In this document: positions 1 through 24,096 of the stretch, in pieces
How positions within the stretch are numbered: the first letter of the stretch is position 1
Layout of the letters: the number at the start of each line of letters is the position of its first letter
Assembly (NCBI GenBank): GCA_039096225.1
Contig: JBBPEB010000002.1
Location: forward strand, 62,001 to 126,000
From: Blastocystis sp. Blastoise
Taxonomy: Eukaryota; Protista; Bigyra: Opalinata
Length of the DNA: 64,000 nt
Reading direction: 5' to 3'
The notes under the pieces: generated by a model
The model's input: only the letters and a program-made list of their open reading frames with translations
The model's database searches: none
What the model was told of the DNA's origin: nothing
Made by a program: the position numbers and the translations under genes

Positions 1-392
1 ATAAAAATGTATGTATAGTGATCAATAAATAATATAAAAAGTCATGATAATCATAAAAAAATTTATATAAAAAGAGTAAAGTGATCAAGGTATGTATTTA
101 TAGTGGGTGAAAGAAAAGCTGGTGGTGGTGTGGTCTTGTAAAAAGATGTACCCACCACCACGATTATAACGAGAGACTTTTGGAAACAAGGGTGACCGTT
201 ATGGAAATAGGATGCGTCATCGTGAATTGTCCAATCAAATTGCTTAAAAATGTAAAAATGAGGGATTTTGGAACACAAAAACATAATTATATTGGGGAAA
301 CTGGGGAAACTAATTGTGTTCCAGTGGTTTTAGGTGGCGGGATGTATATCAATTTTCTAGAATATTCTAGAACATTCTCGAAACTTCTAGAA
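1..392 (+). repeat. Left terminal inverted repeat (partial)
   Basis: Reverse complement of 23705-24096 (position 1 pairs with 24096). The only differences I spotted are 3 clustered mismatches near 284-294. Confidence 0.95.
355..392. promoter_or_regulatory. Heat-shock-element-like array, 8 alternating nTTCn/nGAAn units
   Basis: TTCtaGAAtaTTCtaGAAcaTTCtcGAAacTTCtaGAA, 45 bp upstream of the ATG at 438. Confidence 0.75.
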
Positions 393-437
393 TAATAAAT
401 TGTATTATGCGTTTTTTCTATTTTTATACTATTTATT

Positions 438-608
438 ATGGATTCTCCAAAGCAATTTGCTCCAGATTATAAAGAAGGTACTTGGAAACCTTATGGAAAT
501 TTTGAAGTTGATGAATTAAGTGATAGTGATTCTGATATGGACAGTTTTCATACTGTAAGTGAAGATGATGAATATGAAGATTATATCAAGAATTTTATTG
601 ATTTTTAA
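438..608 (+). CDS. Small acidic protein, 56 aa (not in ORF track)
   Basis: ATG438-TAA608 encodes MDSPKQFAPDYKEGTWKPYGNFEVDELSDSDSDMDSFHTVSEDDEYEDYIKNFIDF. HSE-like array upstream, TGTTTAGTT 3' motif at ~637. Confidence 0.65.
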   Translation: MDSPKQFAPDYKEGTWKPYGNFEVDELSDSDSDMDSFHTVSEDDEYEDYIKNFIDF

Positions 609-676
609 ATTAATTTTTATAAATAACAAAACAAATTGTTTAGTTTAAAAATAATAATAAATAAAATAAATTAAAA

Positions 677-2278
677 TTAACTAATGTTTCTGCGTTTATT
701 TCTAAATTTCTTAGGTGTTGTAGTACGTCTTTTTCTACGTAATCCATGTCCTGCAATATAAAATTTATTTCCTTCTCCATCATCACATGACTCAAAATCA
801 TCATCATCATCATCATCTTTATTTTTATTATTTTTATTTTCAAGAGTAACATTTGATACTGGATTGGGAATCGGGGCTACCGGTGTAATGTTTGGAGAGA
901 AATTGTTTTTGACTACTTGGGACATTGGAATGGTGACAGGTAAAGGAGCAGTAGGATCGTTCATACGAGGAATTAAATCTATTGGTCTTGATTCATTTAT
1001 ATCAATATTATGAATATTTTCTAATGTTACAGGGGGACTTGGTGAAGGAATTAAAATATTATCATCATTATTATCGCCTAAAGGGAAGATTGGTGAAGGA
1101 GTAATATCTTCATTTAAATGAGGGATTGGTGAAGGACTTGGAACATCACCAATATCTATTTCTAATGGATTCTCATCTTGTAATAATTGTTGTTCTTCAG
1201 GACGTTTACCAAAATAATAATCAGAGAAACTATTAAATGTATCTTTAATATACGAACCTATTTTATTTGCACCATCAACCAATTTATTTGCTGTTTTTTT
1301 AGCAACATTAACAACAGGTTTTGCTGTATTTGTTACAGTATTAACAACTTTTTTAACAAGTGTTGGATCTGCTGCATATCTAATATAATCTTCATGGAAT
1401 GTTGGCGTTATTTTGTTTAGATAATCACGTCTTGCAAGAACTTCACTAACTGAATCTTTATTAGAAAAATGGGCTTCAGGATAATAAAGATCAGCTAATT
1501 CTTTATTCTTTTTCTTAGCTTCATTATTATTAGATATTTTCCAATTATCATACAAATTATTTCTATCACTCACAATTTTTCCTTTAATATCGTTAAATCC
1601 TTCTTGTGGATCAATATTAATATCTTTCCACCATTTCTTAAGATCTTTAAATTTATCTGCACCATAATCAACTGCACTACTTATTCCATGAGTGATATTA
1701 TGAATGCCTCCAGTTAAATTATTAGCAACACTATATACATCACCAACAACACCAAAAACATTTCCGAATAAATTACCTCCTCTTGAATATAAATATCCTT
1801 CGCGATCTCTTCTAGTAAAATCAATAGCTTTATCAATTGTACGAGGATTTAATAATCTTGAATATTTAGCATAATCAGGCATATGATGCTGTTTCATATA
1901 AGGTAAGACATAATCATGAGCATAAATGAGTTTTCTTGTGAAATTCCTTGGAATTCTACCATCAGGTAACAACCCAGATCCTTCATCTATTGGTTCAGTT
2001 TCTTCTGATTCCTCTAATGAACTTTGTATAACATCTTGTCTAGTTTCTGATAAATATGAATAGAATGGATTTGACATTGCTCTATTAACCATATTACTTT
2101 CTATTCGCTTAACAGCAGCTAAAGAATTAGGAGCAATAGAATAATTAATTGGATGACGTTCTTCTCCATCAGGAATAGATCCTGGAACAATATAATTTCG
2201 ATATTCATGACCAGTAGCACGATGATTTACGCCTACTAATCCTTTATTTGAAACATTTAAACGAGCACTTTGTATCAT
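677..2278 (-). CDS. Putative virion core/membrane-active protein
   Basis: 533 aa ORF. GG/GxG motifs (EGSGL, RGGNLFGNVFGVVG, AGHGL), amphipathic segments, Pro-rich linker, acidic run, basic C-terminal tail. Confidence 0.55.
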   Translation of the reverse strand: MIQSARLNVSNKGLVGVNHRATGHEYRNYIVPGSIPDGEERHPINYSIAPNSLAAVKRIESNMVNRAMSNPFYSYLSETRQDVIQSSLEESEETEPIDEGSGLLPDGRIPRNFTRKLIYAHDYVLPYMKQHHMPDYAKYSRLLNPRTIDKAIDFTRRDREGYLYSRGGNLFGNVFGVVGDVYSVANNLTGGIHNITHGISSAVDYGADKFKDLKKWWKDINIDPQEGFNDIKGKIVSDRNNLYDNWKISNNNEAKKKNKELADLYYPEAHFSNKDSVSEVLARRDYLNKITPTFHEDYIRYAADPTLVKKVVNTVTNTAKPVVNVAKKTANKLVDGANKIGSYIKDTFNSFSDYYFGKRPEEQQLLQDENPLEIDIGDVPSPSPIPHLNEDITPSPIFPLGDNNDDNILIPSPSPPVTLENIHNIDINESRPIDLIPRMNDPTAPLPVTIPMSQVVKNNFSPNITPVAPIPNPVSNVTLENKNNKNKDDDDDDDFESCDDGEGNKFYIAGHGLRRKRRTTTPKKFRNKRRNIS

Positions 2279-2390
2279 TTTATAAAATAATTATATTTTT
2301 TAAACAAAACAAAATAAAATATTGTATAATAAATTATTAATTACAAGATAATATATAAGAAATATAGATATATAATGTAAGGTATGCTAG

Positions 2391-3197
2391 TTATTTATTT
2401 TTTAAATAATCATCAAGAGGAATTGCTTCTCCATCTACATCAATATATACTGTATTCTTAGTATATATTAATCTCTTATCACCAAAAGCATCACTATTAG
2501 TACAATTTAGTAATCCTGATTTAATATAATAATCGAATTCAAATTCACCATAAGACGCTTTCTTGTACTTATTTTTGTTTTTATCTTTGTATACTTTATT
2601 AGCTACCTTGAAATCTCTCACTGGTTGTGTGGGTGTTTCAGTTTCTTTTTCAGTTTCAGGTTTCGTTTCAGGTTTAGTTTCAGGTTTAGTTTCAGGTTCT
2701 TTAGATGGTTTCTTTTCGGGTTCAGGTTTAGGTTCTGGTTTGGGTTGTTCTTCAGTGAAATTAGAATTCATGGATTCTGGTTGTGGTTTCACTGTATAGT
2801 CTTCATTAGGATTTCTTACAGTATGAATAAGTTTTTCATATTGATAGTTATTAGGATTACTAGCATCATACCATATCTTACTTGTAGTAGGAATACCATA
2901 ATTCGTTTGCCATTGAGATAACATTGATGTATATCTATTTGTATCACCATTAGCTTTAGCTGAATTCATAGTAGCTATAAACATATCTTCAGGTGATTGA
3001 CCATGATTTCTTAATGCTTGAACTGCCATTGAACTATACATAGATCCTTGTGCATTAGGATCATGTGCTAATGGTTGTACAGGTTGTTCATCTTGACAAA
3101 TATATGAATTGGGTAACCATGGATCCCAAGATTGTTTTTTCTGATTTCTTGATAAAATATCATAGAGAGTTACACTATCTCCTAAATTACTTTGCAT
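2391..3197 (-). CDS. Hypothetical viral protein with KPE(T/P) repeat linker
   Basis: 268 aa ORF in the structural gene cluster, followed by the 3' motif at 2303-2312. Confidence 0.7.
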   Translation of the reverse strand: MQSNLGDSVTLYDILSRNQKKQSWDPWLPNSYICQDEQPVQPLAHDPNAQGSMYSSMAVQALRNHGQSPEDMFIATMNSAKANGDTNRYTSMLSQWQTNYGIPTTSKIWYDASNPNNYQYEKLIHTVRNPNEDYTVKPQPESMNSNFTEEQPKPEPKPEPEKKPSKEPETKPETKPETKPETEKETETPTQPVRDFKVANKVYKDKNKNKYKKASYGEFEFDYYIKSGLLNCTNSDAFGDKRLIYTKNTVYIDVDGEAIPLDDYLKNK

Positions 3198-3273
3198 TAT
3201 TTATTGTATTAATTTAAAAATAATTATATAACAAAACAAATAATTAATTATGAAATAATAAAAGTTAAAATAA

Positions 3274-4311
3274 TTAATTTAAATGGAATTTTTTTAAGAA
3301 GAATTGAACAAGATTAATAATTAAATTAGTAGTAGTATCAAAGGATGTAGAGTTGACAAGAGCACCACCACAACGTTCAGCATTCTCTTTTGTAACACCA
3401 CTTCCACTAGGATTTTTAAAGTAGTTATCAGCAGTTTCTTTACGTTTCTTATCATCATCAGTAGTAATCATATTATAAGCGAAATCAATAGGGATACCAA
3501 GAGAAGGATAATAGTATTTTAATGCATTCACTACAATAGGAACAATCGTTTTAATAGTTTTAATAGCAGTATTCGCAATAATAGAATGCTTTTGTTTTGG
3601 ATCCATAGGATATTCTTTATCGATAACGACATTAACAATATCACGTACAGACACATGCTCATCATTTTTAGGTAATCGTTCTTTAATATCTTGTAATTTC
3701 TTCTTATTAGACTTTACATTACTAGAACGAATAGACTTCTTAGCAATAATTTTTATTTGAGGAGTTACGAATTTACTTGTTTTCTTTTCTTTTTCTCGGT
3801 GACTCCCATGTTCTTTACGATGTTTCTGATGCCTTCTATGTATACCTTGACCAAATATATCATCATAATTTTCATCTTCAAGATTTGCATTATTATAATC
3901 TTTATCATCATCAGCCATCATTTTTCTTGTTATTCTCTTTGGTTGATAAGTAGCATCATCATTATATAATTCATCATCTCTATTAGCATCTTCAATATGT
4001 TCTTCAAATTGTCTTTTCTTTTCTTCTTTTGCTTTTTCTTGACGTTTTTGTTCTTTACGTTTCTGATAATAATTATATCCAGCAAATGCTCCTAATGTAC
4101 CTAAAATAGGTAATGCAGTATAGACACCATTTTTAAAATCAGCCCAATCAGCATCTCTAGTTTGTTGTCTAACAATTTCTTCAAAGCCTGTTCCTCCATA
4201 TCTTACATAACGTTTATGATAAAGATCACGTCTATTTGATTTTGGTGGTGATCCTCCAAATAATCGTGGATCACAATTTTGTTTTAAATATCTTTTTGTA
4301 ATTGAACTCAT
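3274..4311 (-). CDS. Putative virion core protein with a hydrophobic segment
   Basis: 345 aa ORF. Hydrophobic stretch ALPILGTLGAFAG, GG/GxG motifs (FGGS, YGGTGF, FGQGI, SGSGV, CGGA), basic patches. Confidence 0.55.
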   Translation of the reverse strand: MSSITKRYLKQNCDPRLFGGSPPKSNRRDLYHKRYVRYGGTGFEEIVRQQTRDADWADFKNGVYTALPILGTLGAFAGYNYYQKRKEQKRQEKAKEEKKRQFEEHIEDANRDDELYNDDATYQPKRITRKMMADDDKDYNNANLEDENYDDIFGQGIHRRHQKHRKEHGSHREKEKKTSKFVTPQIKIIAKKSIRSSNVKSNKKKLQDIKERLPKNDEHVSVRDIVNVVIDKEYPMDPKQKHSIIANTAIKTIKTIVPIVVNALKYYYPSLGIPIDFAYNMITTDDDKKRKETADNYFKNPSGSGVTKENAERCGGALVNSTSFDTTTNLIINLVQFFLKKFHLN

Positions 4312-4364
4312 AACAAAACAATAAAATAATTATGGTTTATTTAACAAATTAAAATATAAAAAAA

Positions 4365-5402
4365 TTAATGAAAAGAAGGATAACCAGAATAATGTTTTTT
4401 ATTTAAATAAGGATTGAAAATGCGTCGTTGACTATCTTGTATGATTTGATCTTGTATGATTTGTAAGATGGATTCTTTAGGTTTATCTTTTTCATCTCGT
4501 TCAATACCTTTCAATGAGACTTCTTCTTCAACAGGTAAAAACTTCTTCATTTTCTTTTCATATGTAGATATATGTTCATTAGGACGTTTAATACCACTAC
4601 CTGATACTTCACCTTGTTCTTCTCGTTTCTCTTTTTCACTATCTTCTTCTGTCCATTTCCTTTTCTTTACCATCTTATAGACATTCTGTTTACTACCACA
4701 ATCAGGATTTGTCCATATCGTTAAATCATCACTACCTTGTTTTAACATAAAGAATTGATGTGGATCATTCATTAATTCTTCATCTGTAAGAATTTCATTT
4801 AAATTTGATGGCATAATCTTTAATTTATCTGGTAAGAATCCAGGATCACGTTTTAAGATTTGACTATTAATAAAGAAATGAGATACTTGACTTAATATAG
4901 ATTGATTGGTAACATCTGTATGACTTTGAAGACATATAATAGCATTCTGTTTATAATGACGACCTTTAGATAATATAGATACAATCAATTGTTTGGTTTG
5001 TCTAGATAATGGATAGATATCATCCAATACAATAAAATTATGTTCTGGTAATTTATATGTATTGACTAATTCATCAACAGTTTTAATCTTTTTAAATTTA
5101 TCATCTACAGAATCATACCATTTATAATCAATTCCAGCATGCTCACAAATATCTTGAAAGGATGTATAACATTCATTCTTATTGGATGCATCAGGACAAA
5201 TTACTGTGACTTGTTTATATTTATTTTTAAGATCCATAGAACATAAGAGGTTCACAGTTAAGAAAGATTTACCTGAGAATGTTCTTGCAATAATCAATAT
5301 AAATTTTGATTCATATGTTTTATGATGTGATTTTCCATATTTGAATTCTAAGACTCCACATCCTTTACGTGTTTCTTTTAATGGATTTATTTTATTCACC
5401 AT
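4365..5402 (-). CDS. Genome packaging ATPase (FtsK-HerA / A32-like)
   Basis: Walker A ARTFSGKS, Walker B FIVLDD, arginine finger KGRHY, following strand ICLQ; adjacent to capsid genes. Confidence 0.9.
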   Translation of the reverse strand: MVNKINPLKETRKGCGVLEFKYGKSHHKTYESKFILIIARTFSGKSFLTVNLLCSMDLKNKYKQVTVICPDASNKNECYTSFQDICEHAGIDYKWYDSVDDKFKKIKTVDELVNTYKLPEHNFIVLDDIYPLSRQTKQLIVSILSKGRHYKQNAIICLQSHTDVTNQSILSQVSHFFINSQILKRDPGFLPDKLKIMPSNLNEILTDEELMNDPHQFFMLKQGSDDLTIWTNPDCGSKQNVYKMVKKRKWTEEDSEKEKREEQGEVSGSGIKRPNEHISTYEKKMKKFLPVEEEVSLKGIERDEKDKPKESILQIIQDQIIQDSQRRIFNPYLNKKHYSGYPSFH

Positions 5403-5471
5403 TTTTATATGATTTTAATCAACAAAACAAAAAATAATTAATGATAAGTTAAAGATAAATATATGATTTTA

Positions 5472-6143
5472 TTAAGATGCAGTAAAGTATATATAAAGAT
5501 TTGTATTTGATAAATCAATTGGATTATTTAATTGATCATATACTTCCCATTGGATATCTGTATATTTACCATCAATACATGGAATAGATAAATCACTTAA
5601 AGCAAATGTATTATCAAATCCTTGTTTAGCATATAAAGGAATAGAAATCAAATCATTATCTTTATTAATAATATCACAATACACACGTAACATATAGATC
5701 TTATACCATGAAATATTATTGGATATATATTCATCAGTAAATACGATTGTATCACCCGGTGAAAAGTATGATGATTTAATGCCTAAGTATTTAAATAGTC
5801 CAGAACTAAGACCACATTCAAACCAATGATTTGATTTAAAAGTTTTAGTTTCTTTATTATAGCTGAAACCATAAGGTTCTCCTTCAACATAGGATTTCAA
5901 TTTTTTTCCAATTTCATATAATTGATCTAAAAAATCTTCTAAAGTATAATTTCCAGCTGGAAATGTATATCTACCATCACTATTATAAATCTTAATATTG
6001 AATTCTGGAATATTAATGATATCACTTGTATTCACTAATGTATTGATATGAGTTATATTTTTACCTACTAAATCCAAAGTATAATTGAATTGTTCATGAC
6101 AGATTTGACTTGTAATTTTACTTAGATGAGATATTGATGTCAT
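5472..6143 (-). CDS. Minor capsid (penton-like) protein
   Basis: FPAGNYTLEDF insertion-domain motif and C-terminal DIQWEVYDQLNNPIDL, typical of Polinton/PLV pentons; lies between ATPase and MCP. Confidence 0.7.
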   Translation of the reverse strand: MTSISHLSKITSQICHEQFNYTLDLVGKNITHINTLVNTSDIINIPEFNIKIYNSDGRYTFPAGNYTLEDFLDQLYEIGKKLKSYVEGEPYGFSYNKETKTFKSNHWFECGLSSGLFKYLGIKSSYFSPGDTIVFTDEYISNNISWYKIYMLRVYCDIINKDNDLISIPLYAKQGFDNTFALSDLSIPCIDGKYTDIQWEVYDQLNNPIDLSNTNLYIYFTAS

Positions 6144-6239
6144 TTTTATTAAATAAATTAATTATGTATTGATAAACAAAACAATATTTTTAAGATTAAT
6201 ATAAAGTTGATACAAATAAGAAAATATTATATAATTAAA

Positions 6240-7463
6240 TTAATTGGTTGCACCATCTCTAACAAATTTAACAAATATAAAATGAGCATATAAAGTATAA
6301 GTACCACTAGTAATATTTGCACCATTATATTCAGTTAATAAGGAGATATTAACTTCACAACCACTACGAGTATTGACATCAACAACACTTGAAATAGGGA
6401 ATATATAAATAGGTTGTTCATACCACTTTTCACCGTTTAAAGGAGATTGAGGATGACTATTACATCTCCAAGTATTATAAAGCATAGCATTAGGAATAAT
6501 TTGTGATGGATTCGTTGTTTTATACGTAGTAGGGAAATCCGTCTTTGGTAAGATATTTTGACCACCAATTTGGAATTGACACATCTTCAATAATTCAGTC
6601 TTAATAGGAATCATACTCTTCTCTTGAGTTGTAAAATATAGCATACAGTAATCAGGTACGAAAACAACACTTCTATTGGATAAGAATTGTTGTGGAGTTG
6701 GTTTACCTGCTGTTGTGAATGTTTGTGAATAAACAGGTGTAGTAAATGCAGATATTTGACAATTATTAGGAATACATTTAATTAAAGCACGTGGATCATT
6801 ACCAAAATTAATATCATAAATTTGTTGAAGATGAATATAAACACGATCAAATGTTAATGCAGTGATTTTAGTCGTACCTGTAAATAGATTCTTTAAATAA
6901 TTTGTAACGAATTGCATCTTCAAAGATTTTACTTTAATAGCACAATCAAATGTACCAAGACCAGTAATAAGAGATAAAGGAATAATAACTTGAGCTTTAG
7001 TAGAACTTTGCATTCCAGAAATACTGCTTAAGGTTGTATTATATAAGCATTCTGTCATACTATACATAGATTTATCAATTTCATCTTTACTTAATTCTTT
7101 AATAGTAACAAATTTTCTTGCTTTACTGGATTCAATAGAAGATTCAGAATAATTAATAAGAATATCTTGACCCGTAGGAGATACAAACGTAAGATCTGTA
7201 GTAATTTTATCAATAATACTATAGATATTAGAATGTTGTACAACAGAACTAGTTGTAGCTGCATTTGTTGTAATATTGAAATTCAGTTCTAAGAATGAAT
7301 TGCTGAAATCAATAAAAGGACTATCCACTGAATTATATAAGAATTCAAATGGATAAGGTTGATTTAATAAATCTTGACTTGTAGAAACTAGAATAGGAAT
7401 TTGTACAGGTTTAATAGTTTGATTTGCCTTTGAAGGTAAGAATTGTCTTGGGAATCCTTCCAT
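6240..7463 (-). CDS. Major capsid protein (double jelly-roll), paralog 1
   Basis: 407 aa, beta-rich. FIDFSNSFLEL, IIPLSLI, VPDYCMLYF and PIYIFP resemble PLV/Polinton MCP strands; collinear with 7641..9113. Confidence 0.75.
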   Translation of the reverse strand: MEGFPRQFLPSKANQTIKPVQIPILVSTSQDLLNQPYPFEFLYNSVDSPFIDFSNSFLELNFNITTNAATTSSVVQHSNIYSIIDKITTDLTFVSPTGQDILINYSESSIESSKARKFVTIKELSKDEIDKSMYSMTECLYNTTLSSISGMQSSTKAQVIIPLSLITGLGTFDCAIKVKSLKMQFVTNYLKNLFTGTTKITALTFDRVYIHLQQIYDINFGNDPRALIKCIPNNCQISAFTTPVYSQTFTTAGKPTPQQFLSNRSVVFVPDYCMLYFTTQEKSMIPIKTELLKMCQFQIGGQNILPKTDFPTTYKTTNPSQIIPNAMLYNTWRCNSHPQSPLNGEKWYEQPIYIFPISSVVDVNTRSGCEVNISLLTEYNGANITSGTYTLYAHFIFVKFVRDGATN

Positions 7464-11623: not shown

Positions 11624-11692
11624 ATATTTTAATTCATTTCATTTAAATTAAAAAATGTTTTGTTATATTATTCATTTAAAAATTATTAAAAA

Positions 11693-12115: not shown

Positions 12116-12182
12116 TTCTATGAAATGTTATAAAATATTAATAATAAATTTGTTTTGTTTATAAATAATTTAATTTTTAATA

Positions 12183-17026: not shown

Positions 17027-17112
17027 GATTATTTGACTTATAAATAATGAAAATAAATATGGTATAAAATTCAAAACAAATAATATATTAAAGATTCTAG
17101 AAGTCAGTTTTA

Positions 17113-17342: not shown

Positions 17343-17966
17343 TTAAATTTCAATTGGTTCTTGACTATTAATATATGTACATGAATGAGGCCATCCATTC
17401 TTATCATATAAAATACCATCCCAGAAATACATTTGTTTTGAAGGATCTCTTTTAATCTTGTTAATACTCTTAGCATGAACAACTTCATAAGTATAAACTT
17501 TACCTTTTTCATCATAAAGAAATCCATCTTCCATATGGAATTTCATAATATCAAAATCATCATCTTTAGAATTCGAATGTTCTTTAGAATCTTCAGAACA
17601 TAAAATAGTAGTTCTATCACTTTCTAAAAGATCTTCAGTATTAATAATATCTTGAATATCTTGTTCTTCATTAAGTTGTTGAGTATAAATATCAGCAGCG
17701 AATTCTTCATAATCTTCAAGACCTTTAATAACCGCGTTTATACGTTTTAAAGCTGATCTATAGTTTTCGACTTCGAAAGAAGCAAGACGTTCTTTAGATT
17801 TTGCAATACCCAATAGATTCTTTTCTCTATTCAATTGAGACTGATGTAAATCAATATCACGAAGAACATTCTTATGAACTTCAACAGCCTTCTTAGAATT
17901 CTTAAGAAGTTCCATACGAACAGTTTGAAGACATTTACGGGAATCAGCAGAAAGATTAAATTGCAT
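17343..17966 (-). CDS. Hypothetical viral coiled-coil protein
   Basis: ORF with first ATG at 17966 (MQFNLS...), heptad-rich N-half; 3' motif at 17274-17283. Confidence 0.7.
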   Translation of the reverse strand: MQFNLSADSRKCLQTVRMELLKNSKKAVEVHKNVLRDIDLHQSQLNREKNLLGIAKSKERLASFEVENYRSALKRINAVIKGLEDYEEFAADIYTQQLNEEQDIQDIINTEDLLESDRTTILCSEDSKEHSNSKDDDFDIMKFHMEDGFLYDEKGKVYTYEVVHAKSINKIKRDPSKQMYFWDGILYDKNGWPHSCTYINSQEPIEI

Positions 17967-18077: not shown

Positions 18078-18095
18078 GAATGTTCTAGAAGGTTC
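18078..18095. promoter_or_regulatory. HSE-like array (4 units) in a divergent promoter region that also has three ATTGG (CCAAT) boxes
   Basis: GAAtgTTCtaGAAggTTC; ATTGG at ~18101, ~18174 and ~18244. Confidence 0.55.
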
Positions 18096-18364: not shown

Positions 18365-18892
18365 ATGGAAATTCCTGATAGTCTTTCTGCCAGTTTATCC
18401 CCTTTCGGTCAAGCCATGATATCCCCCTTGTTGAATCCATTTGAAAATAGTGTTTCTGCAAATCCTATGGCTTTACCCAATGAAGATGATTTCCGTTTTA
18501 ATTCGCGTGACGAAATCATGTTTGAAGATCCACCTCAAGAAATTCATCCAATCAATGATGTTTACGTATCTAAAAATCCAGATAGATATCATTCCGTTAA
18601 CAATCAACCAATACAATTTCAAGATCAAGTAAATACAAATCCTGATAAGCAAGCATTATTATTTACAAATGAGGAGTTAACAAATATATCCAGTCAATTC
18701 GAATCTTTATTTCAAACTATTGAAACAGCTGATAATATATTAAATGGTATTTATTGTACTGTTGATCATTTAAAAACAAAGATTGAAAGTCAGAAACAAG
18801 ATTTGAAACAGATTCATGATGATTCTAAAGAAATTGTTTCATTATTATCCGAATATTCTATTCCTTCTATGTCTGAAATATTTGATCATTAA
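18365..18892 (+). CDS. Hypothetical viral protein (acidic/Pro-rich N-half, coiled-coil C-half)
   Basis: 175 aa ORF followed by TTGTTTTGTT at 18916. Confidence 0.7.
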   Translation: MEIPDSLSASLSPFGQAMISPLLNPFENSVSANPMALPNEDDFRFNSRDEIMFEDPPQEIHPINDVYVSKNPDRYHSVNNQPIQFQDQVNTNPDKQALLFTNEELTNISSQFESLFQTIETADNILNGIYCTVDHLKTKIESQKQDLKQIHDDSKEIVSLLSEYSIPSMSEIFDH

Positions 18893-19091: not shown

Positions 19092-19139
19092 TTCTAGAAC
19101 CTTCTCGAACCTTCTAGAACCTTCTAGAACCTTCTCGAA
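19092..19139. promoter_or_regulatory. HSE-like array, 10 units
   Basis: TTCtaGAAccTTCtcGAAccTTCtaGAAccTTCtaGAAccTTCtcGAA, 77 bp upstream of ATG 19217. Confidence 0.78.
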
Positions 19140-19216
19140 AATTGATTCATTTGAAAAGAATATCGTAAAATATTAGTATTAAAATACTTATATTTTTACT
19201 AAATACTTAACTAAAA

Positions 19217-19810
19217 ATGTCTACAACTGAATTTAAAAAACCTACTATTCTTGATACTTCTAACTTTAATTTACAATGGGATGACACCAAAGAAAATGCT
19301 GTTCTTTTAAATAATAATCATCGTGTATGTATTTCTACTGATGCCACACCATGTTTATTTGGTTATATTGTTACACGTGATAAATGGACTTTATTAACAA
19401 TTGAAGATGATAATCAAGTATTCTTAACTGCTTATAAAGAACTTTATCGTAAATTATGTGAATTATGTCCTGATGGTGATATTGTTAATTTTGTACGTAT
19501 GGATAATGGTAAATATAAGATTACAATTAAAGTACCTATTAATGCATCGAAGAATGTTACTATTGATATCACTGATAAAAGAGATAAGAAGATTAATATC
19601 GGTAAAGATCCTAAGTTAACTTACGAAGAAATACGTGAAAAGTATATTCCACCAAATACGTTATGTAAAGTATTATTTACAATACATGGTATTCATCGTT
19701 ATAATAACAAGTATTATATTGGTTTATATGCTCGTTCTATTAAAGTCATCGATAAATCTACGAAGAATACTAATAGTAATGATACTATTATTGATTTAAC
19801 TAATTTATAA
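19217..19810 (+). CDS. Putative OB-fold single-stranded DNA-binding protein (NCLDV / T7 gp2.5-like)
   Basis: 197 aa. ISTDATPCLFG and IPPNTLCKVLFTIHGI...YYIGLYARSIKV resemble viral SSB strands; replication-module context. Confidence 0.55.
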   Translation: MSTTEFKKPTILDTSNFNLQWDDTKENAVLLNNNHRVCISTDATPCLFGYIVTRDKWTLLTIEDDNQVFLTAYKELYRKLCELCPDGDIVNFVRMDNGKYKITIKVPINASKNVTIDITDKRDKKINIGKDPKLTYEEIREKYIPPNTLCKVLFTIHGIHRYNNKYYIGLYARSIKVIDKSTKNTNSNDTIIDLTNL

Positions 19811-19884: not shown

Positions 19885-21531
19885 ATGCAAAGTTGTATAT
19901 TAGGAATGCCAAGTCCTGGTACTTTTGGTATGAATTTAATTTCAACTGGAAAAGAATATAGGCGATATAATACACAACCATTACATAAAATGGATCAATA
20001 TAATCCAATATTTCATGAAATAGGTCCAAATTCATCTATGCCTGTGTCTACTTTAGAAAGTAAAGAAATACATGATGGTAAAGAAGATGATTATGTAGAT
20101 CGTTCTAAAACATTTGGTAAAGATGCTGTTCCACAAGGAAATGGTGCTTTAATTCGTGCTAGAGCAGCAGGTAAAGGTATAATGAAAGCAGCTGGTCCAG
20201 AAGAAGATAAAATAGATGGTGAAGATCGTCAATATAAAGTATTAAATCCATGTAAACCAAGACGTAAATCTGGTAGAGGAATTATTCCAAATAAATCAGA
20301 AATCAATAAATTAGAGAATAATCAAGGTTCTGGTATTGGTGATGCAATTAAAAATAAAGTAAAAGATATGTATCAACGAAATGTATTAGATATAAGAGAT
20401 GCTATTGTAGATAAAAAAGCTAATAGAAAAGCTCGTGATGCATTAGCTATTTTAGCTCAATATGTTGGTGACGGTCATCATGATCTTGATGATGAATTCA
20501 AAAGATTCTATGAACATAAAATAAAACGTGGTGGAAAAATTCCTATATCTGTTGCTTCAGCAATTATGAATGCAATTAAAAATAAGAAAATGATTATTAA
20601 TCCAAAATTAAGAAGAATGTTAAGACCCTCTATTATACCAAAATATATAGATTTAGATTCAGTTCAAAGTGGTGATGGTATATTAAGAGTAAAAAGAGGT
20701 GGTGGATTCTGGAGTGGATTAATGGATTATGCACCAGCTCTATTAGGTGTAGTTGATAAAGGTATGGATTCTTTTGCTAAAGGTAGAAAAGCTTATTATG
20801 ATACACATTTGGCACAACAATCAAGTGAATTAAATGATATGGAATTTGAAATGGAAAAATTAAAACGTCAACAAGCATTAAATGAAATGAAAAAGCAAAT
20901 AGGTTCTGGAAATACTATAAATAAAATGTTTGAAGGATATTATGATGTAGCTGATGAAATGCAAGATGCTCTTGATGAAGATGATAGACTACATCCACAA
21001 CCCGTTGTTCAACCTCCACCACCTCCACAACAACAAGTTGATCGACCTACTCAACCTCGACCTCCTCAACATTCGCAACCTCCTCAACCTTATAAACCTA
21101 TGCCTCGTGATGAACAAAGTTATCCTTATAAGATTTATGGTTTCCCTCAAAATGATAAAGAAAAAGTCGATAGAAAATGGAAAGAAGATGAAAGGGATAA
21201 ACGAATAGCTGCAAGAAGAGCTAAACGTAGAGGTTATGGTGGTCGAGTTAAATTAAGTAAAGCAGAATTCTTAGAACGAATGAGAAGAGGAAAAGAAGCT
21301 AAAAAGAAAAGAGGTGGTGATTTGAATCCATTAGTATCATTTTATACAGATTTTATAATACCTGCAGGAGTGGCACGAAAAAAACGTAAAATACAAGAGG
21401 CTGATTTAAAACAATTACAAATTATAAAACAGAAAATAGATAATAATGAAACATTAAATACAGGTGACGAATTGTTCTGGAAAAAAAAGAAGTATATGTT
21501 ATCAAAAAACTCAGGGGAGGGGATCTGGTAA
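19885..21531 (+). CDS. Basic core polyprotein-like precursor with many GxG/GG motifs
   Basis: 548 aa, K/R-rich, ~12 GxG/GG motifs, including RGGGFWSGLMDY followed by an amphipathic helix; directly upstream of the protease. Confidence 0.6.
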   Translation: MQSCILGMPSPGTFGMNLISTGKEYRRYNTQPLHKMDQYNPIFHEIGPNSSMPVSTLESKEIHDGKEDDYVDRSKTFGKDAVPQGNGALIRARAAGKGIMKAAGPEEDKIDGEDRQYKVLNPCKPRRKSGRGIIPNKSEINKLENNQGSGIGDAIKNKVKDMYQRNVLDIRDAIVDKKANRKARDALAILAQYVGDGHHDLDDEFKRFYEHKIKRGGKIPISVASAIMNAIKNKKMIINPKLRRMLRPSIIPKYIDLDSVQSGDGILRVKRGGGFWSGLMDYAPALLGVVDKGMDSFAKGRKAYYDTHLAQQSSELNDMEFEMEKLKRQQALNEMKKQIGSGNTINKMFEGYYDVADEMQDALDEDDRLHPQPVVQPPPPPQQQVDRPTQPRPPQHSQPPQPYKPMPRDEQSYPYKIYGFPQNDKEKVDRKWKEDERDKRIAARRAKRRGYGGRVKLSKAEFLERMRRGKEAKKKRGGDLNPLVSFYTDFIIPAGVARKKRKIQEADLKQLQIIKQKIDNNETLNTGDELFWKKKKYMLSKNSGEGIW

Positions 21532-21563
21532 AGAGTAAAGATGAAAAACTTATTCAAAATTCA

Positions 21564-22097
21564 ATGAATTGCGATAATCCTATTATATCTGATAAAACTC
21601 GTCATGTTACTCCTAGATCCCCTGATAATTTTAAACAAACTCTATCTCAATATTGTAATATACCCAATTCTTTAATATCTCAATTATATAATTATGCTTA
21701 TTTAAATAAACCTACTTCTTCTGTTGCTTGTGATCGTGCTGAAAATGTTATGAAACAATTAAATAAAATGAATTCTCAATCTTATAATTATTATAATAGT
21801 TATGATGATTTTGAACAAAATATAGATCAAGATCAAACTAAATTTAATATTATCTTTCATTAATGTCCTAGTGATCCTTATAATGGTCATTTTGAAGCTG
21901 TTATTTATAATGGTAATAAAAATATAGAACACTATTCATCATTAGGAAATAAACCTACTTTTTCAAAATCATTTATTCAAAATCATAATATTCAATATAA
22001 TCCTATTCAACACCAAAAAACTACAAGTAATGCAAATGGTTGCTTTTATTATTCTTTACTTTATTTACTTTCTAATGGAAATCTTATGCCTTGTTAA
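21564..22097 (+). pseudogene. Adenain/Ulp1-clan (CE) cysteine maturation protease interrupted by an in-frame TAA at 21861-21863
   Basis: The frame continues past the stop: NIIFH*CPSDPYNGHFEAV...IEHYSSLG...IQYNPIQHQKTTSNANGCFYY, matching the GHW...YFDSxG...Q...C pattern. Confidence 0.72.
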
Positions 22098-22101: not shown

Positions 22102-22124
22102 TTCTAGAACATTCTAGAACATTC
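22102..22124. promoter_or_regulatory. HSE-like array, 5 units
   Basis: TTCtaGAAcaTTCtaGAAcaTTC, upstream of ATG 22220. Confidence 0.65.
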
Positions 22125-22219: not shown

Positions 22220-22597
22220 ATGAACAAGAAATATCTTAGTTATTCTTATTTTTGTCGTGTGATGAAGAATCTAAAAGAAGAAGGAATTAAATCCAAAAAG
22301 AATGAAATAGCGAATCTATTAGAACAATTTTTAAATAATAATAACAACAAGAATCTTAGTGATTTGCAATTGAGTTACTGTAGAAACATGTTACTTTATA
22401 TAGATGATCCTGTGATTCATCAACGTCTTGAAATGCTATTGGATAAACAATATATGAAGAATGAGAATCAATATCAAGAGGATAAGAATCTTATTCAACC
22501 CAATAATATGTTTATGCCAACTATGAAAAGTAATCAACAACAAAATCAATATCAAAATAATAATAATAATAATCTATCTTTCTTACCTTTTAATTAA
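22220..22597 (+). CDS. Hypothetical viral protein with Q/N-rich C-terminus
   Basis: 125 aa ORF, HSE-like array upstream, TTGTTTAGTT at 22621. Confidence 0.65.
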   Translation: MNKKYLSYSYFCRVMKNLKEEGIKSKKNEIANLLEQFLNNNNNKNLSDLQLSYCRNMLLYIDDPVIHQRLEMLLDKQYMKNENQYQEDKNLIQPNNMFMPTMKSNQQQNQYQNNNNNNLSFLPFN

Positions 22598-22670
22598 TTT
22601 TTATATCCTTTTATTACTAGTTGTTTAGTTATATTCAAAATTAAAGCAAAACAAACATGAAAACATAAAA

Positions 22671-23606
22671 TTATTCAATTAATTTTTTAAATAAATTATT
22701 ATTTTCTAAAGATACATAAGAATTAATATGTGTATAATCATTATGACATAAAGCAGAAGCAGAATTTTCTATATCTTGAAATGTATTGGTTGTAGTTGTA
22801 GCATATAATTTTCTTAATGCATTAATGGTCAATTTTGGATGGATTTGTTTTAAATGCTTATTCACAAACCAATCAAATGCTTTAGTAGTAAATCCAGTTC
22901 TTACAGAAGATTCAAATATAAATTTACGATTTGGATTTCTTTTTAAGAGTAATTCTAGATCTTCAATCAATTCTTTTGGTGCATCTAATTGAATTGTAGA
23001 GTATTTACCAGCAGTTTTATAATCATTTAATAGAATAGAACCAGTATGTTTCTCTTTATCATAAACAATATAATTCTTATGAATAGCTGGATCAATAGTA
23101 TCTTCTGGTGATAGAATGAATAATTGAGCATAATCAGCACGAGCAGGAGGAAGATAGGAGTAAAAATCTAATATTAATCGTAATGGGTTATAATTTTCTA
23201 ATTTATCGTGATATTCATGTAAATATGGAGTCGTAATACCATCTTTAATAAGATCTTGAATTAAAGTACGTTTCTTATTATCCAGATATTTTTCATACAT
23301 TGAATTGATAATCACATAAAATTCACACCATTTATTTAAAATACCTTCTTTATTTAATGAAGAAACATTACGTATAATAAATAAAATCAATTCACATAAC
23401 GATTTCATTGGACTAATTTTGATTTTACGTTCATTTACCATATAATCCATGAATGAATAAGGATTCTTTAAGAATTCTGAGAACTTTTTAAATGGTAATG
23501 GGAAAATATATAAATTGAAATAATTGGTTAAACGTTTTTTCCAAATATCAGAATAATTTGAATTCTGTATAACCAAAAGATACTTGTCATAATTTGTATT
23601 TTTCAT
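22671..23606 (-). CDS. Tyrosine recombinase 2 (PLV/virophage-type integrase)
   Basis: R (LPPARADY), K (LNDYKTAGKY), NxxR (INALRKLY), H and Y (LCHNDYTHINSY). First ATG at 23606; adjacent to the right TIR. Confidence 0.85.
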   Translation of the reverse strand: MKNTNYDKYLLVIQNSNYSDIWKKRLTNYFNLYIFPLPFKKFSEFLKNPYSFMDYMVNERKIKISPMKSLCELILFIIRNVSSLNKEGILNKWCEFYVIINSMYEKYLDNKKRTLIQDLIKDGITTPYLHEYHDKLENYNPLRLILDFYSYLPPARADYAQLFILSPEDTIDPAIHKNYIVYDKEKHTGSILLNDYKTAGKYSTIQLDAPKELIEDLELLLKRNPNRKFIFESSVRTGFTTKAFDWFVNKHLKQIHPKLTINALRKLYATTTTNTFQDIENSASALCHNDYTHINSYVSLENNNLFKKLIE

Positions 23607-23694
23607 TGATTTTCTCAAGTAGAATCTCTAAAACTTCTATTTTCAAAAGAATAATACATAAGAAAATCAAAATAAAATATCTAAGATTCTCATG

Positions 23695-23742
23695 TTCTAG
23701 AATGTTCTAGAAGTTTCGAGAATGTTCTAGAATATTCTAGAA
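23695..23742. promoter_or_regulatory. HSE-like array, 10 units, at the inner edge of the right TIR
   Basis: TTCtaGAAtgTTCtaGAAgtTTCgaGAAtgTTCtaGAAtaTTCtaGAA, ~90 bp upstream of the recombinase 2 ATG. Confidence 0.78.
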
Positions 23743-24096
23743 AATTGATATACATCCCGCCACCTAAAACCACTGGAACACAATTAGTTTCCCCAGTTTC
23801 CCTATTATAATTGTGTTTTTGTGTTCCAAAATCCCTCATTTTTACATTTTTAAGCAATTTGATTGGACAATTCACGATGACGCATCCTATTTCCATAACG
23901 GTCACCCTTGTTTCCAAAAGTCTCTCGTTATAATCGTGGTGGTGGGTACATCTTTTTACAAGACCACACCACCACCAGCTTTTCTTTCACCCACTATAAA
24001 TACATACCTTGATCACTTTACTCTTTTTATATAAATTTTTTTATGATTATCATGACTTTTTATATTATTTATTGATCACTATACATACATTTTTAT
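23705..24096 (-). repeat. Right terminal inverted repeat (portion that can be matched inside the window)
   Basis: Reverse complement of 1-392. Confidence 0.95.

Follow-up and report, generated by a model that had tools for sequence, protein, structure and literature searches.

The locus analysed here lies within a 64,000-nucleotide stretch of the genome of Blastocystis sp. Blastoise (GCA_039096225.1, contig JBBPEB010000002.1, positions 62,001 to 126,000; hereafter 'the window'), and it raises two questions: what kind of element occupies positions 1-24096 of the window, and what controls the expression of its genes. The results, all computational, indicate that 1-24096, and probably the DNA up to about 24620, is very probably the integrated genome of a polinton-like virus (PLV), carried by a tortoise-clade Blastocystis, an AT-rich protist. 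The element is bounded by terminal inverted repeats (TIRs), the visible part of the left arm (1-392) pairing with 23705-24096 on the right with 3 mismatches in 392 nt (99.2% identity), in agreement with a first-pass annotation of this DNA that had reported TIRs about 99% identical. The left arm begins at base 1 of the window, and the visible TIR size is therefore dictated by the window edge. Direct repeats with a spacing of about 130 nt straddle 24096 (copies at 24005, 24107, 24237 and 24452), and copies of repeat families D3, D4, D9 and D10 flank this position on either side, so that 24097-24470 is a probable continuation of the TIR and the true right end probably lies near 24470-24620. The annotation's near-complete element at 1-24096 is thus confirmed as TIR-bounded, but its coordinates are only a minimum.

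Apart from the left arm clipped at the window edge, the element looks intact. Positions 1-24096 contain 18 non-overlapping ATG-initiated ORFs of 99-1000 aa and, at 438-608 (plus strand), a 56-aa ORF read from the sequence and having no Pfam match; all 19 are intronless, use the standard code and end in TAA (19/19), and the coding fraction is 86%. About 20 intronless genes with one disruption had been described; the intronless genes are present, but no gene disruption was found in the element. Searches with Pfam, PHROGs and NCBIfam gave no match to pPolB or RVE in the 18 ORFs, as had been claimed, and no match to an RNA polymerase, a transcription factor or a polymerase among the element ORFs.

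The capsid and packaging genes support assignment as a PLV. Major capsid protein 1 (MCP1; 6240-7463, minus strand) models as a double jelly-roll, as the first-pass annotation had expected: the AF2 model (pLDDT 80.3, pTM 0.81) gives Foldseek matches with E of 2e-12 to 1e-9 (Sputnik 3j26_A at 2e-12), a best BFVD match to MELD virus sp. A0A8S5L5M3 (1.8e-17, TM 0.71) and, in VIA, Z of 18.8-17.1 over residues 1-407 against the PBCV-1, faustovirus, mavirus and Sputnik MCPs, a fold equally near virophage and giant-virus MCPs. Its paralogue MCP2 (7641-9113, minus strand) aligns with it by BLASTP at 28% identity over 418 columns (E 6e-39). The FtsK/A32-like genome-packaging ATPase (4365-5402, minus strand) matches phrog_2666, terminase large subunit, over residues 24-263 (E 1.2e-10) and, weakly, Pfam FtsK_SpoIIIE, and its sequence contains Walker A (GKS) and hydrophobic-DD motifs. 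A probable penton (minor capsid) gene (5472-6143, minus strand) separates the ATPase gene from the MCP genes; its identification is a lead given by this position and by Atlas feature matches to DUF5901-bearing clusters (score 0.97, 201 shared features) and to Sputnik V18/19 minor capsid clusters (0.96, 199). The motif P.G.Y[ST]..[EDQ][FL] occurs once in this protein, twice (residues 160 and 327) in an 811-aa acidic protein (9188-11623, plus strand) and in none of the 17 other ORFs, and the 811-aa protein may accordingly comprise two penton-like modules; BLASTP finds no significant similarity within this pair, and the 811-aa protein shows no similarity to the MCP profile and no family match in Pfam, PHROGs or NCBIfam. 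Of the full morphogenetic module proposed earlier, the ATPase and MCP stand and the penton protein is probable, but no protease was found in the element ORFs by any library (Pfam, PHROGs, NCBIfam).

The replication gene (14024-17026, minus strand) encodes an AEP primase-PriCT-SF3 helicase protein, as had been proposed; it has visible conserved motifs and matches phrog_1156 DNA primase (2.4e-9) and the TIGR01613 P4-family primase C-terminal domain (1e-8, residues 582-761), and its family members match Pfam PF23162 AEP_C962R (2/9, 1.5e-10), DUF5906 (4/9) and PriCT_2 (2/9). Priming would be by the AEP primase, and the polymerase would probably be supplied by the host, no polymerase gene having been detected among the ORFs. 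Two genes encode tyrosine recombinases. The first (12183-13979, plus strand; 598 aa, ORF10) consists of a recombinase at residues 1-390 and a variable C-terminal tail of about 200 aa; its AF2 model (pLDDT 69) has XerA, Tn1549 Int and Cre as leading Foldseek matches and VIA Z of 11.4 with XerA, 10.8 with Cre (283 aligned, rmsd 5.8), 9.7 with XerH and 9.4 with lambda Int. With homologues in 163 clusters and conserved R..K..R..H..Y columns, it belongs to the conserved core genes of the element family. The second (22671-23606, minus strand), which adjoins the right end, is a distant paralogue: hhalign of the A2 profile against it gives 69% probability and E 4.4e-5 over 269 columns, pairing ARNDY/ARADY, NDTK/NDYK, IRHLFA/LRKLYA and H..TH..NY/H..TH..SY, and its Pfam Phage_integrase match is weak (0.084). 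Tyrosine recombinases usually act on circles, and this activity alone does not account for a TIR-bounded insertion. The duplications claimed for the MCP, penton and recombinase genes thus hold for MCP and recombinase, but for the penton come down to the shared motif.

The remaining ORFs include two related at their N-termini (33% identity over 60 aa, E 1e-5): a 533-aa protein, likely a virion or internal protein (677-2278, minus strand), with a weak PHROG tape-measure match (2.7e-5), and a 548-aa basic protein, likely of the virion core (19885-21531, plus strand). On the minus strand are also a 268-aa protein with a KPE/T-rich repeat (2391-3197), a 345-aa basic protein (3274-4311), whose 90% cluster counts 18 sequences from the host assembly, and a 207-aa protein (17343-17966); on the plus strand are proteins of 140 aa (11693-12115), 175 aa (acidic; 18365-18892), 197 aa (19217-19810), 99 aa (21564-21863) and 125 aa (22220-22597). 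The 197-aa protein had been called an SSB, a name that finds no backing in Pfam, PHROGs, NCBIfam or the PDB, none of which yields a match.

In Yutin et al. (2015, PMC4642659), PLVs are defined by MCP, minor capsid protein and ATPase, are without protease and RVE, and in some cases have a tyrosine recombinase; those integrated in Guillardia theta carry AEP-S3H, and their recombinase gene lies close to one end. According to Bellas et al. (2023, PMC10120064), endogenous PLVs are 15-30 kb long, have TIRs in 47% of cases, and encode a tyrosine recombinase or an rve integrase besides pPolB or a primase-helicase. The published PLV pattern thus already pairs a primase-helicase with a tyrosine recombinase and lacks pPolB, RVE and protease. 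Multi-capsid PLVs ('Trimcap') have also been described, and a 2026 preprint reports PLVs in which the MCP gene is present in three divergent versions and the penton gene sometimes in two (10.64898/2026.06.19.733378). The first-pass annotation was thus right in seeing, in an AT-rich protist, a PLV that has an AEP-SF3 primase-helicase besides its capsid module, but the gene set is not unusual.

One feature that appears new is the predicted regulatory wiring. A motif scan of the window finds seven clusters of nTTCnnGAAn repeats, resembling heat-shock elements (HSEs), all within the element and only upstream of 438-608, the primase-helicase gene, the 17343/18365 pair, 19217, 22220 and the right-end recombinase gene. 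They comprise four TTCnnGAAnn units, in phase with one another, on the inner margin of the left TIR (355-392, 46 nt upstream of 438-608), two arrays before the primase-helicase gene (17095-17155 and 17185-17232), a four-unit site between the divergent genes 17343-17966 and 18365-18892 (18078-18095), five 10-nt units, likewise in phase, that precede 19217-19810 by 78 nt (19092-19139), a site upstream of 22220-22597 (22102-22124), and five units that straddle the inner margin of the right TIR and precede the recombinase gene 22671-23606 by 89 nt (23695-23742). Matches to TTCTAGAANNTTCTAGAA with at most 2 mismatches number 20 (0.12 expected), matches to GAANNTTCNNGAANNTTC number 16 (0.02 expected), and perfect matches to the classical 14-nt heat-shock consensus, CTNGAANNTTCNAG, number 12 (0.03 expected), all in the element. 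Of the 28 phased units in the count (26 from the arrays), 26-28 retain TTC and GAA, and positions 9-10, in the spacer, vary. The replication and recombination genes thus lie behind HSE-type arrays, and the element would likely wake upon host-cell stress; such arrays ahead of non-structural genes appear to be an unusual arrangement.

A second motif, TGTTTTGTT, is found on the sense strand 14-80 nt past the stop codon in 14 of 18 ORFs (TGTTTTGTTT: 13 matches, 0.16 expected), an arrangement that also appears new. It resembles TGTTTGTT, the nuclear downstream gene element of human-associated Blastocystis, which is located downstream of transcript ends and is proposed to serve in 3' end formation; the same report states that this element is not enriched in tortoise isolates (PMC10690189), so that TGTTTTGTT may be virus-specific and not of host type. 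The host part of the window has the motif 178 nt past the stop of a DEAD-box/KH gene and 61 nt past a transposase ORF, which we count as weak support.

We favour, with moderate confidence in the account as a whole, a PLV that is transcribed by the host nucleus and controlled through HSEs. The provirus would remain silent until stress activates the heat-shock factor of the host; binding of this factor to the arrays would then induce the genes for replication and recombination. Genome copying would rely on a host polymerase recruited by the primase-helicase, and expression of the structural block, a densely packed set of genes (677-13979 and 19885-21863), would follow; transcription would likely be by host nuclear machinery, with TGTTTTGTT directing 3' end formation as proposed for TGTTTGTT. 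MCP1, MCP2 and the penton protein would form capsids that the ATPase fills, and chromosomal insertion would be the work of one recombinase or of both.

The arrays could instead be operators for another palindrome-reading factor, either another host factor or a small element-encoded protein (for example 22220-22597, 21564-21863 or 438-608), which would set an early/late or lysogeny-like switch in the same PLV. In 24-25 of 28 units TTCTAGAA retains its central TA. This conservation suits an ideal heat-shock element and equally a palindrome for some other factor, and exceeds what nTTCnnGAAn requires. The arrays are strictly 10-nt periodic, with 4-5 units, usual cellular heat-shock elements being shorter, and several small ORFs adjoin them; moreover, no heat-shock element occurs in the window's 40 kb of host sequence, which hence shows no host usage of the motif. 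However, the 12 perfect consensus matches, the variants TTCTCGAA, TTCGAGAA and TTCAAGAA, which alter the centre but retain TTC and GAA, and the failure of Pfam and NCBIfam to detect a DNA-binding domain in any small ORF argue for heat-shock factor, and we consider a different factor unlikely.

Heat-shock control also fares better than a virophage-like scheme in which the PLV multiplies only with giant-virus co-infection and the arrays and TGTTTTGTT are the helper's transcription signals, a scheme to which we give little credence. Its model is mavirus, which uses the CroV late promoter, and TTCTAGAA contains TCTA, the core of that promoter. On a giant-virus MAG contig in IMG/VR (L001), two convergent genes are separated by a comparable triple TTCTAGAA palindrome, the MCP fold is as near to virophages as to giant viruses, and published work describes giant-virus dependence in many PLVs and virophages. 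Against this, the conserved array letters are TTC and GAA, not TCTA, the 3' motif resembles a Blastocystis nuclear element as so far described, and searches of IMG/VR, a collection rich in PLVs and virophages from giant-virus systems, did not recover the element family. We know of no giant virus of Blastocystis. The egovirus preprint (10.1101/2024.03.23.586382) reports an absence of gene flux between Blastocystis and its large gut DNA viruses, which also argues against a helper.

Copies and relatives bear on whether the element is a virus at all. The host assembly contains about 20 near-identical copies (about 19-20 at 90% identity or more), four of them on the window's own 1.32-Mb contig, as the first-pass annotation had led us to look for; together with the TIR identity they bear out its claim of recent integration and indicate an element recently active. 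The window's MCP1 sequence recurs letter for letter on 4 contigs (90% cluster, 19 placements) and MCP2 has 20 placements; 7 of 10 window proteins looked up occur exactly in the protein collection, as does MCP1, and the primase-helicase (1000 aa) and 12183-13979 (598 aa) have same-size copies at 99%. ENA/Logan assemblies yield 87 MCP1 clusters and 163 ORF10 clusters, the longest relatives' contigs peaking at 20.2-24.1 kb (23710, 23956, 23719, 23715, 23048, 24131, 23923 and 23573), with size 23048 common to MCP and ORF10 relatives. The abundance of the family as 20-24 kb contigs in metagenome assemblies outside IMG/VR appears new, as does a tortoise-clade Blastocystis host with about 20 copies. 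A transposon-like viral remnant, spreading particle-free through the Blastocystis genome by recombination and having pieces of other Blastocystis genomes as its metagenomic relatives, would explain why every named match is a chromosomal copy (contigs of 0.5-2.2 Mb) and why locus-tag order places neighbouring copies in tandem or inverted pairs, as inter-copy recombination would give. We regard it as highly improbable: 19/19 ORFs are open, full-length capsid genes persist in about 20 copies, MCP1 is conserved at 55-61% identity across at least 80 diverged clusters, which implies selection on the capsid, and among the matches listed, contigs outside the named genome assembly are all 24.1 kb or shorter, whereas chromosomal insertions in long assemblies should reach into flanks.

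The candidate outermost structure of the intact-looking PLV is a GC-rich imperfect 150-nt palindrome (24467-24618), whose fold (-70.8 kcal/mol, z -7.65) is equalled in stability by 0 of 200 shuffles, and which matches no Rfam family. A free linear genome with covalently closed hairpin ends, using this palindrome as terminal turnaround, the 598-aa recombinase as telomere resolvase and the second recombinase for integration, would suit the position of so stable a palindrome directly outside the sub-terminal repeats, the different placement and regulation of the two paralogues, and head-to-head and tail-to-tail neighbours suggested by locus-tag order, like concatemer junctions of hairpin genomes, but is scarcely credible, given that the palindrome is only a candidate part of the element, the left end lying outside the window, that Pfam gives no telomere-resolvase match and that the best 50 structural matches of the 598-aa model are Xer, Cre, integrase and topoisomerase IB chains.

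Window positions 1-392 and 23705-24096 are reverse complements of each other with 3 mismatches, and the visible length of the left arm is set by the window, because that arm starts at window base 1. Short direct repeats about 130 nt apart have copies at 24005, 24107, 24237 and 24452, that is, on both sides of 24096, and positions 24467-24618 hold a GC-rich imperfect palindrome of 150 nt in otherwise AT-rich DNA (-70.8 kcal/mol, z -7.65). Because the repeats span 24096 and the palindrome lies beyond it, we take 1-24096 as the minimum extent of the element, an integrated polinton-like virus (PLV), and place its right end, as a likely position, at about 24620. The stretch between the terminal repeats contains 18 ORFs that do not overlap, each 99-1000 aa long, together with one of 56 aa at 438-608; all are intronless, open under the standard code and TAA-terminated, 86% of the stretch is coding, and GC content is 26.7% in the element vs. 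21.1% in the remaining window. The palindrome at 24467-24618 matched no Rfam family, and candidate identities for it are a terminal structure of the element, a small RNA gene or a foldback element; the Rfam scan of the window gave no family at gathering score and nothing credible in 24000-25400.

The structural model of the protein encoded by 6240-7463 (MCP1), folded with 39 sequences (pLDDT 80.3, pTM 0.81), matches in Foldseek the capsid proteins of Sputnik, PBCV-1, PRD1 and mavirus (E 2e-12 to 1e-9). Its best match in BFVD is a protein labelled 'MELD virus sp.' (E 1.8e-17, TM 0.71, 15% identity), with proteins of adintoviruses and virophages next in rank, and VIA-align gives, for the whole chain (residues 1-407), Z scores of 18.8 for PBCV-1, 18.7 for faustovirus, 18.4 for mavirus and 18.2 for Sputnik, with an overall range of 18.8-17.1 to the major capsid proteins (MCPs) of PBCV-1, mavirus and Sputnik. 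The first-pass annotation had read 6240-7463 as a double jelly-roll protein, and this reading holds, because the model matches double jelly-roll capsids in Foldseek, BFVD and VIA-align. We conclude that MCP1, as modelled, is a double jelly-roll major capsid protein. The capsid proteins have no sequence match in Pfam, PHROGs or PDB; the product of the adjacent gene, 7641-9113 (MCP2), is 28% identical to MCP1 (E 6e-39).

The ORF at 4365-5402 matches phrog_2666, a PHROG terminase/packaging ATPase family, at E 1.2e-10, matches FtsK_SpoIIIE weakly (0.051) and has a visible P-loop, and we assign it as a predicted FtsK/A32-type packaging ATPase. The ORF between the ATPase and MCP1, 5472-6143, matches ESM Atlas clusters with DUF5901 or Sputnik V18/19 (0.96-0.97, 199-201 shared features; DUF5901 in 14% of members, Sputnik V18/19 in 26%); its gene position also fits, and we regard it as a penton (minor capsid) candidate, the cluster matches being a lead and not a test. 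The 811-aa protein encoded by 9188-11623 was considered as a third MCP and rejected, as hhalign against A1, the profile of the MCP1 family, was negative (probability 0.5%); two MCP genes were found in the element. All that the 811-aa protein has in common with the penton candidate is the motif P.G.Y[ST]..[EDQ][FL], which it contains twice. The products of 677-2278 and 19885-21531 have an N-terminal 60-residue domain in common (E 1e-5). The protease that the first-pass annotation had included in the morphogenetic module was not recovered, no ORF matching one in Pfam, PHROGs or NCBIfam. Adenain-like sites of the forms [LIMV].GG. and [LIMV].G.G, which we take to resemble adenovirus-type protease cleavage sites, occur in several presumed virion proteins, namely the products of 677-2278 and 3274-4311, the ATPase, MCP1 and MCP2, in an element in which no protease gene was found. 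As a separate observation, the proteins of 677-2278, 2391-3197, 12183-13979 and 19885-21531 all start M(I)QS or MQT, as do 20 aligned relatives of 12183-13979.

The ORF at 14024-17026 matches phrog_1156 DNA primase (2.4e-9) and the TIGR01613 P4-family primase C-terminal domain (1e-8). An HMMER search with its product against 1.84 billion representatives returned just 9 proteins, none from outside its own narrow family, and of these two match PF23162 AEP_C962R, the AEP domain of ASFV C962R (1.5e-10), four match DUF5906 and two match PriCT_2. The family alignment retains RRLWFDLD, GxHxYTN, NNGxMxxGCSK, GxxGxNGKT, MYYMNEL and TSNxQP, which we take to be AEP motifs I-III and SF3 motifs A-C. The results indicate that 14024-17026 encodes a predicted AEP-SF3 primase-helicase of the NCLDV D5 / ASFV C962R type, with an N-terminal AEP domain, a PriCT domain and a C-terminal SF3 (P4/D5-type) NTPase.

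The 598-aa product of 12183-13979 (recombinase 1) has 163 homologous clusters and a model with pLDDT 69, for which the top 13 Foldseek rows are all recombinases (XerA, Tn1549 integrase and Cre). Over residues 1-390, VIA gives Z scores of 11.4 for XerA, 10.8 for Cre, 9.7 for XerH, 9.4 for lambda Int and 8.5-9.1 for type IB topoisomerases, and we assign this region a predicted two-domain Xer/Cre-like tyrosine recombinase fold. A telomere resolvase was considered and set aside, no such chain appearing among the best 50 structural matches, a result that does not exclude one. The LCARNDY, HVNDTKN, IRHLFAQ and MLHSQ.THM.NYI columns are invariant in 21 sequences of the recombinase 1 family, and ARADY, NDYK, LRKLYA and CHNDYTHINSYV of the product of 22671-23606 (recombinase 2) align to these invariant columns. 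By hhalign, recombinase 2 matches A2, the profile of the recombinase 1 family, with probability 69% (E 4.4e-5) over 269 columns, with the R, K, R and H..Y motifs in register. We take these motifs, assigned by eye, as candidates for the catalytic R..K..H-x-x-R..H/W..Y positions, with the first histidine apparently replaced.

No DNA polymerase, RVE integrase or SSB was found among the ORFs of the element with Pfam, PHROGs and NCBIfam, and in the same databases 0 of 18 ORFs match pPolB, RVE integrase or a maturation protease at E 0.1 or better, very divergent forms being possible. The absence of pPolB and RVE stated in the first-pass annotation accordingly holds for the 18 ORFs; the SSB it had placed at 19217-19810 matches no family in Pfam, PHROGs or NCBIfam and no PDB sequence. 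PDB sequence searches gave nothing significant for the ATPase, the primase-helicase (as single sequence and as profile), the MCP profile, the recombinase profile, 19217-19810 or 22671-23606. Having neither pPolB nor RVE, the element falls outside the definition of Polintons/Mavericks, of which these two genes are the hallmarks; its replication protein is instead the AEP-SF3 primase-helicase.

According to the available portions of two surveys, PLVs characteristically combine an MCP, a minor capsid protein and an ATPase, without pPolB, RVE or protease, and carry an AEP-S3H primase-helicase and an end-proximal tyrosine recombinase (PMC4642659; PMC10120064). The element resembles the PLVs that these texts describe, especially integrated Guillardia theta elements (PMC4642659), as well as protist endogenous PLVs (PMC10120064), in its 15-30 kb size class and terminal inverted repeats, in its double jelly-roll MCP, candidate minor capsid protein and A32/FtsK-type ATPase without pPolB, RVE or protease, and in its AEP-S3H primase-helicase, its tyrosine recombinase gene near one end and its many copies per protist genome. 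Trimcap PLVs, as the accessible text describes them, have three divergent MCP genes, in some cases with two penton genes, and are linked to marine or unclassified stramenopiles (10.64898/2026.06.19.733378; PMC10120064); they share with the element more than one divergent double jelly-roll MCP gene per small genome, a stramenopile host and, possibly, more than one penton-like gene. Because it follows this published pattern, and Trimcap genomes are described with several MCP and two penton genes, the gene set is ordinary for a PLV, and the first-pass annotation, which had called it unusual, overrated its oddity.

The element also differs from known PLVs and from the Blastocystis MELD virus. In contrast to Trimcap genomes as described, which have three MCP genes, it has two that were found, and the product of the neighbouring 811-aa gene does not resemble the MCP profile. 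IMG/VR is rich in Trimcap genomes, but the element's family was not found there. Compared with PLVs generally, its capsid proteins have no sequence counterpart in Pfam, PHROGs or PDB and no relative found in IMG/VR, its host is an anaerobic gut stramenopile, it has a second, conserved 598-aa recombinase within the structural block, and it carries arrays resembling heat-shock elements (HSEs) and a 3' motif, TGTTTTGTT. With respect to virophages, which depend on a giant virus and have a virophage-type MCP and a cysteine protease, the MCP1 fold is equally close to virophage and giant-virus MCPs, and no protease was found in the element. The Blastocystis MELD virus, which encodes an adintovirus-like PolB and a retroviral-type integrase in the available text of Starrett et al. 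2021 (PMC8502044) and is also named in 10.1101/2022.05.25.493380, is likewise a DNA virus of medium size that is linked to Blastocystis data and whose virion proteins escape recognition from sequence, but the element has primase-helicase and tyrosine recombinases in place of PolB and retroviral-type integrase; the 'MELD virus sp.' of the best BFVD match to MCP1 may or may not be the Blastocystis MELD virus. Notable features of the element are its non-structural genes wired to predicted HSEs, TGTTTTGTT recurring gene by gene, a second recombinase that is conserved, the candidate terminal palindrome and a large set of unseen metagenomic relatives.

The MCP1 protein occurs in identical form on four contigs of an NCBI assembly and is 93% identical to a named protein of 'Blastocystis sp. 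Blastoise'. At 90% clustering, MCP1 has 19 placements and MCP2 20 placements, and the clusters of the primase-helicase and of 12183-13979 have 19 and 21 member sequences, respectively. The window's own 1.32-Mb contig carries four copies of the element, and the same assembly holds three further, more diverged MCP1 lineages (48-50% identity). On several contigs neighbouring copies, with an arrangement read from locus-tag order only, appear to stand in tandem (3900-3912 / 3915-3929), head-to-head (3480-3491 / 3502-3515) and tail-to-tail (7609-7614 / 7629-7634); this order may be a sign that new copies entered existing ones or their flanks, or that concatemers integrated. The element is a multi-copy provirus with a capsid module, complete-looking and apparently active.

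Diverged relatives of the element are numerous in public assemblies. ENA and Logan assemblies yielded 87 MCP1 clusters, mostly at 55-61% identity, and 163 clusters for ORF10, the gene of recombinase 1, mostly at 43-47%. Outside the named genome assembly, no contig among the matches listed exceeds 24.1 kb and many are of 22.8-24.1 kb, and a contig of size 23048 is present in both the MCP1 and the ORF10 lists; these sizes are compatible with virus genomes of unit length or with assembly breaks at terminal repeats. Searches with the MCP (single sequence and A1) and with A2 found no relative in IMG/VR, JGI metagenomes or GTDB genomes, and neither MCP1 nor the primase-helicase had a tblastn match in GenBank phages. 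MCP1 and the 598-aa recombinase offer markers for surveys of Blastocystis viruses.

According to the available text of a January 2026 review (PMC12835684), the sole evidence for viruses of Blastocystis is two reports of virus-like particles seen by electron microscopy and one study in silico (Starrett et al.); the egovirus preprint (10.1101/2024.03.23.586382), in its available text, reports no link to this genus. Bellas et al. 2023 screened ten Blastocystis assemblies (Table S1), and in the accessible part of the supplement the genus is named only in the genome list (PMC10120064). Strain Blastoise is a member of a clade that is associated with tortoises and has a GC content of 21-23%, described in a study whose main text, in its available form, contains 'virus' and 'viral' once each, has as its sole passage found for these words a general comment on gut microbes, and is without discussion of viruses (PMC10690189). 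In the accessible literature on Blastocystis with polintons, major capsid protein or virus-like particles no such element is described, and preprint supplements may bear on this. We conclude that this is a genuine provirus, complete in appearance, and that it represents a new PLV lineage in a host genus that is likewise new and of medical interest. With its relatives, it gives a concrete handle on viruses of Blastocystis, and it provides a natural vector backbone for a protist without genetic tools.

A heat-shock element is classically defined as three or more contiguous inverted nGAAn units. In the element, TTCTAGAAnn units repeated at a strict period of 10 nt form arrays at 355-392, 17095-17155, 17185-17232, 19092-19139, 22102-22124 and 23695-23742, and an HSE-like site of four units lies at 18078-18095. 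In the whole 64-kb window, TTCTAGAANNTTCTAGAA with at most 2 mismatches has 20 matches vs. 0.12 expected, GAANNTTCNNGAANNTTC, which comprises four contiguous inverted nGAAn units, has 16 vs. 0.02, and CTNGAANNTTCNAG has 12 vs. 0.03; every match to the three patterns lies inside the element. Of the 28 phased units counted, 26 belong to the arrays and 2 are chance occurrences within 12183-13979; TTC and GAA are conserved in 26-28 of the 28 and the central TA in 24-25, and positions 9-10 are variable. Arrays precede 438-608, 14024-17026, 19217-19810, 22220-22597 and 22671-23606 by 46-130 nt, and a further site lies between the divergent pair 17343-17966 / 18365-18892; no array precedes the capsid block or 19885-21863. 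Judged by sequence, the arrays have the form of classical heat-shock elements and are predicted binding sites of heat-shock factor.

It is possible, if doubtful, that the element is a temperate eukaryotic DNA virus with host heat-shock factor as its induction switch, its replication and recombination genes standing behind oversized HSE arrays, two of them within the terminal repeats, and that its family, abundant in metagenome assemblies, is the first lineage of DNA viruses in the commonest gut eukaryote that both forms capsids and integrates. Since the arrays stand before replication and recombination genes, cellular stress would then wake about 20 proviruses together, an induction that, if true, would be comparable to the induction of prophages by the SOS response; heat or other proteotoxic stress is a candidate induction stimulus for a Blastocystis virus. 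Among retrotransposons, Dictyostelium DIRS-1 has heat-shock promoter sequences in its inverted terminal repeats and encodes a tyrosine recombinase, and Arabidopsis ONSEN has heat-shock elements in its LTR. The element is like both in having predicted heat-shock elements in or at terminal repeats, with stress-induced expression as the expected outcome, and like DIRS-1 also in its tyrosine recombinase; DIRS-1 and ONSEN, however, lack double jelly-roll capsids, whereas the element is a DNA virus with predicted arrays at seven places before replication and recombination genes. A candidate late promoter, ATAATTATTTT, found upstream of three structural genes, was rejected (6 hits vs. 2.98 expected, a count of 6 being reached in 7 of 100 shuffles). 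An IMG/VR scan for a triple TTCTAGAA array returned one unrelated giant-virus MAG contig; there, the same triple TTCTAGAAC(A) palindrome as in the element lies at 2990-3030, precisely in the space that separates two convergent ORFs, a position in which it would serve as a transcript-end hairpin and not as a promoter element.

The 3' motif TGTTTTGTT (in one case TGTTTGTT) lies on the sense strand 14-80 nt past the stop in 14 of the 18 ORFs, lies 326 nt past the stop of one further ORF and is absent after three; its 10-mer TGTTTTGTTT occurs 13 times in the 64-kb window vs. 0.16 expected. Human-associated Blastocystis has a motif similar to TGTTTTGTT, the 'downstream gene element'; in the available text of PMC10690189, this element is proposed to direct mRNA cleavage and was found only in the human-associated clade, with no enrichment in tortoise isolates. 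Because no enrichment is reported in tortoise isolates, TGTTTTGTT is either a longer variant that is used by the host clade and was missed or the virus's own signal; its presence after nearly every viral gene bears on the evolution of 3' end formation in Blastocystis. One sequencing run, only guessed to be RNA, has contigs on parts of 17521-17923, 18566-18798, 19206-19781, 20664-21065 and 22741-23421, the uncovered parts of the element carrying no meaning, and omits GT..AG intervals of 45 and 54 nt in adjoining host DNA at 25982-26037. The coverage is a hint at most of transcription of the element.

The host DNA directly right of the element contains a near-perfect palindrome of about 35 kb (25822-60946), with arms 25822-32789 / 53979-60946 (6968 nt) and 35833-39708 / 47176-51051 (3876 nt) that are 100% complementary, stretches of 96-98% between the arms and a unique centre of about 7.5 kb with a DEAD-box/KH-domain gene; it represents a true foldback duplication or else an artefact of assembly. 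Further right, the plus strand carries an IS630/Tc1-mariner-type DDE transposase ORF at 61059-62372 (Pfam DDE_3 5.2e-21, NCBIfam IS630 1e-23), with TGTTTTGTT 61 nt past it, and, at the right edge of the window, an ORF at 63454-63978 (+) whose C-terminal ..GLRHIEIYRL.. looks by eye like tyrosine recombinase box I. The latter ORF has no tyrosine recombinase match in Pfam or NCBIfam and no similarity to the element's recombinase profile, and it perhaps belongs to a further mobile element extending past the end of the window. At 25036-25110 on the minus strand, some 420 nt outward of the terminal palindrome, AT-rich DNA folds into a clean cloverleaf (-19.6 kcal/mol, z -3.8), in which the acceptor stem has 7 bp, three arms are present and the T-loop reads TTCAATT; the structure is tRNA-like and perhaps of organellar type, and ARAGORN and Rfam made no call for it. 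Long strand-asymmetric simple repeats occupy 34000-36400 and their mirror 50500-52700, with a GC skew of 0.82 in 34001-36000, and read as open frames of Y/I/L/S repeats; low-complexity DNA of this kind makes up 12% of the genomes of tortoise isolates in the available text of PMC10690189.
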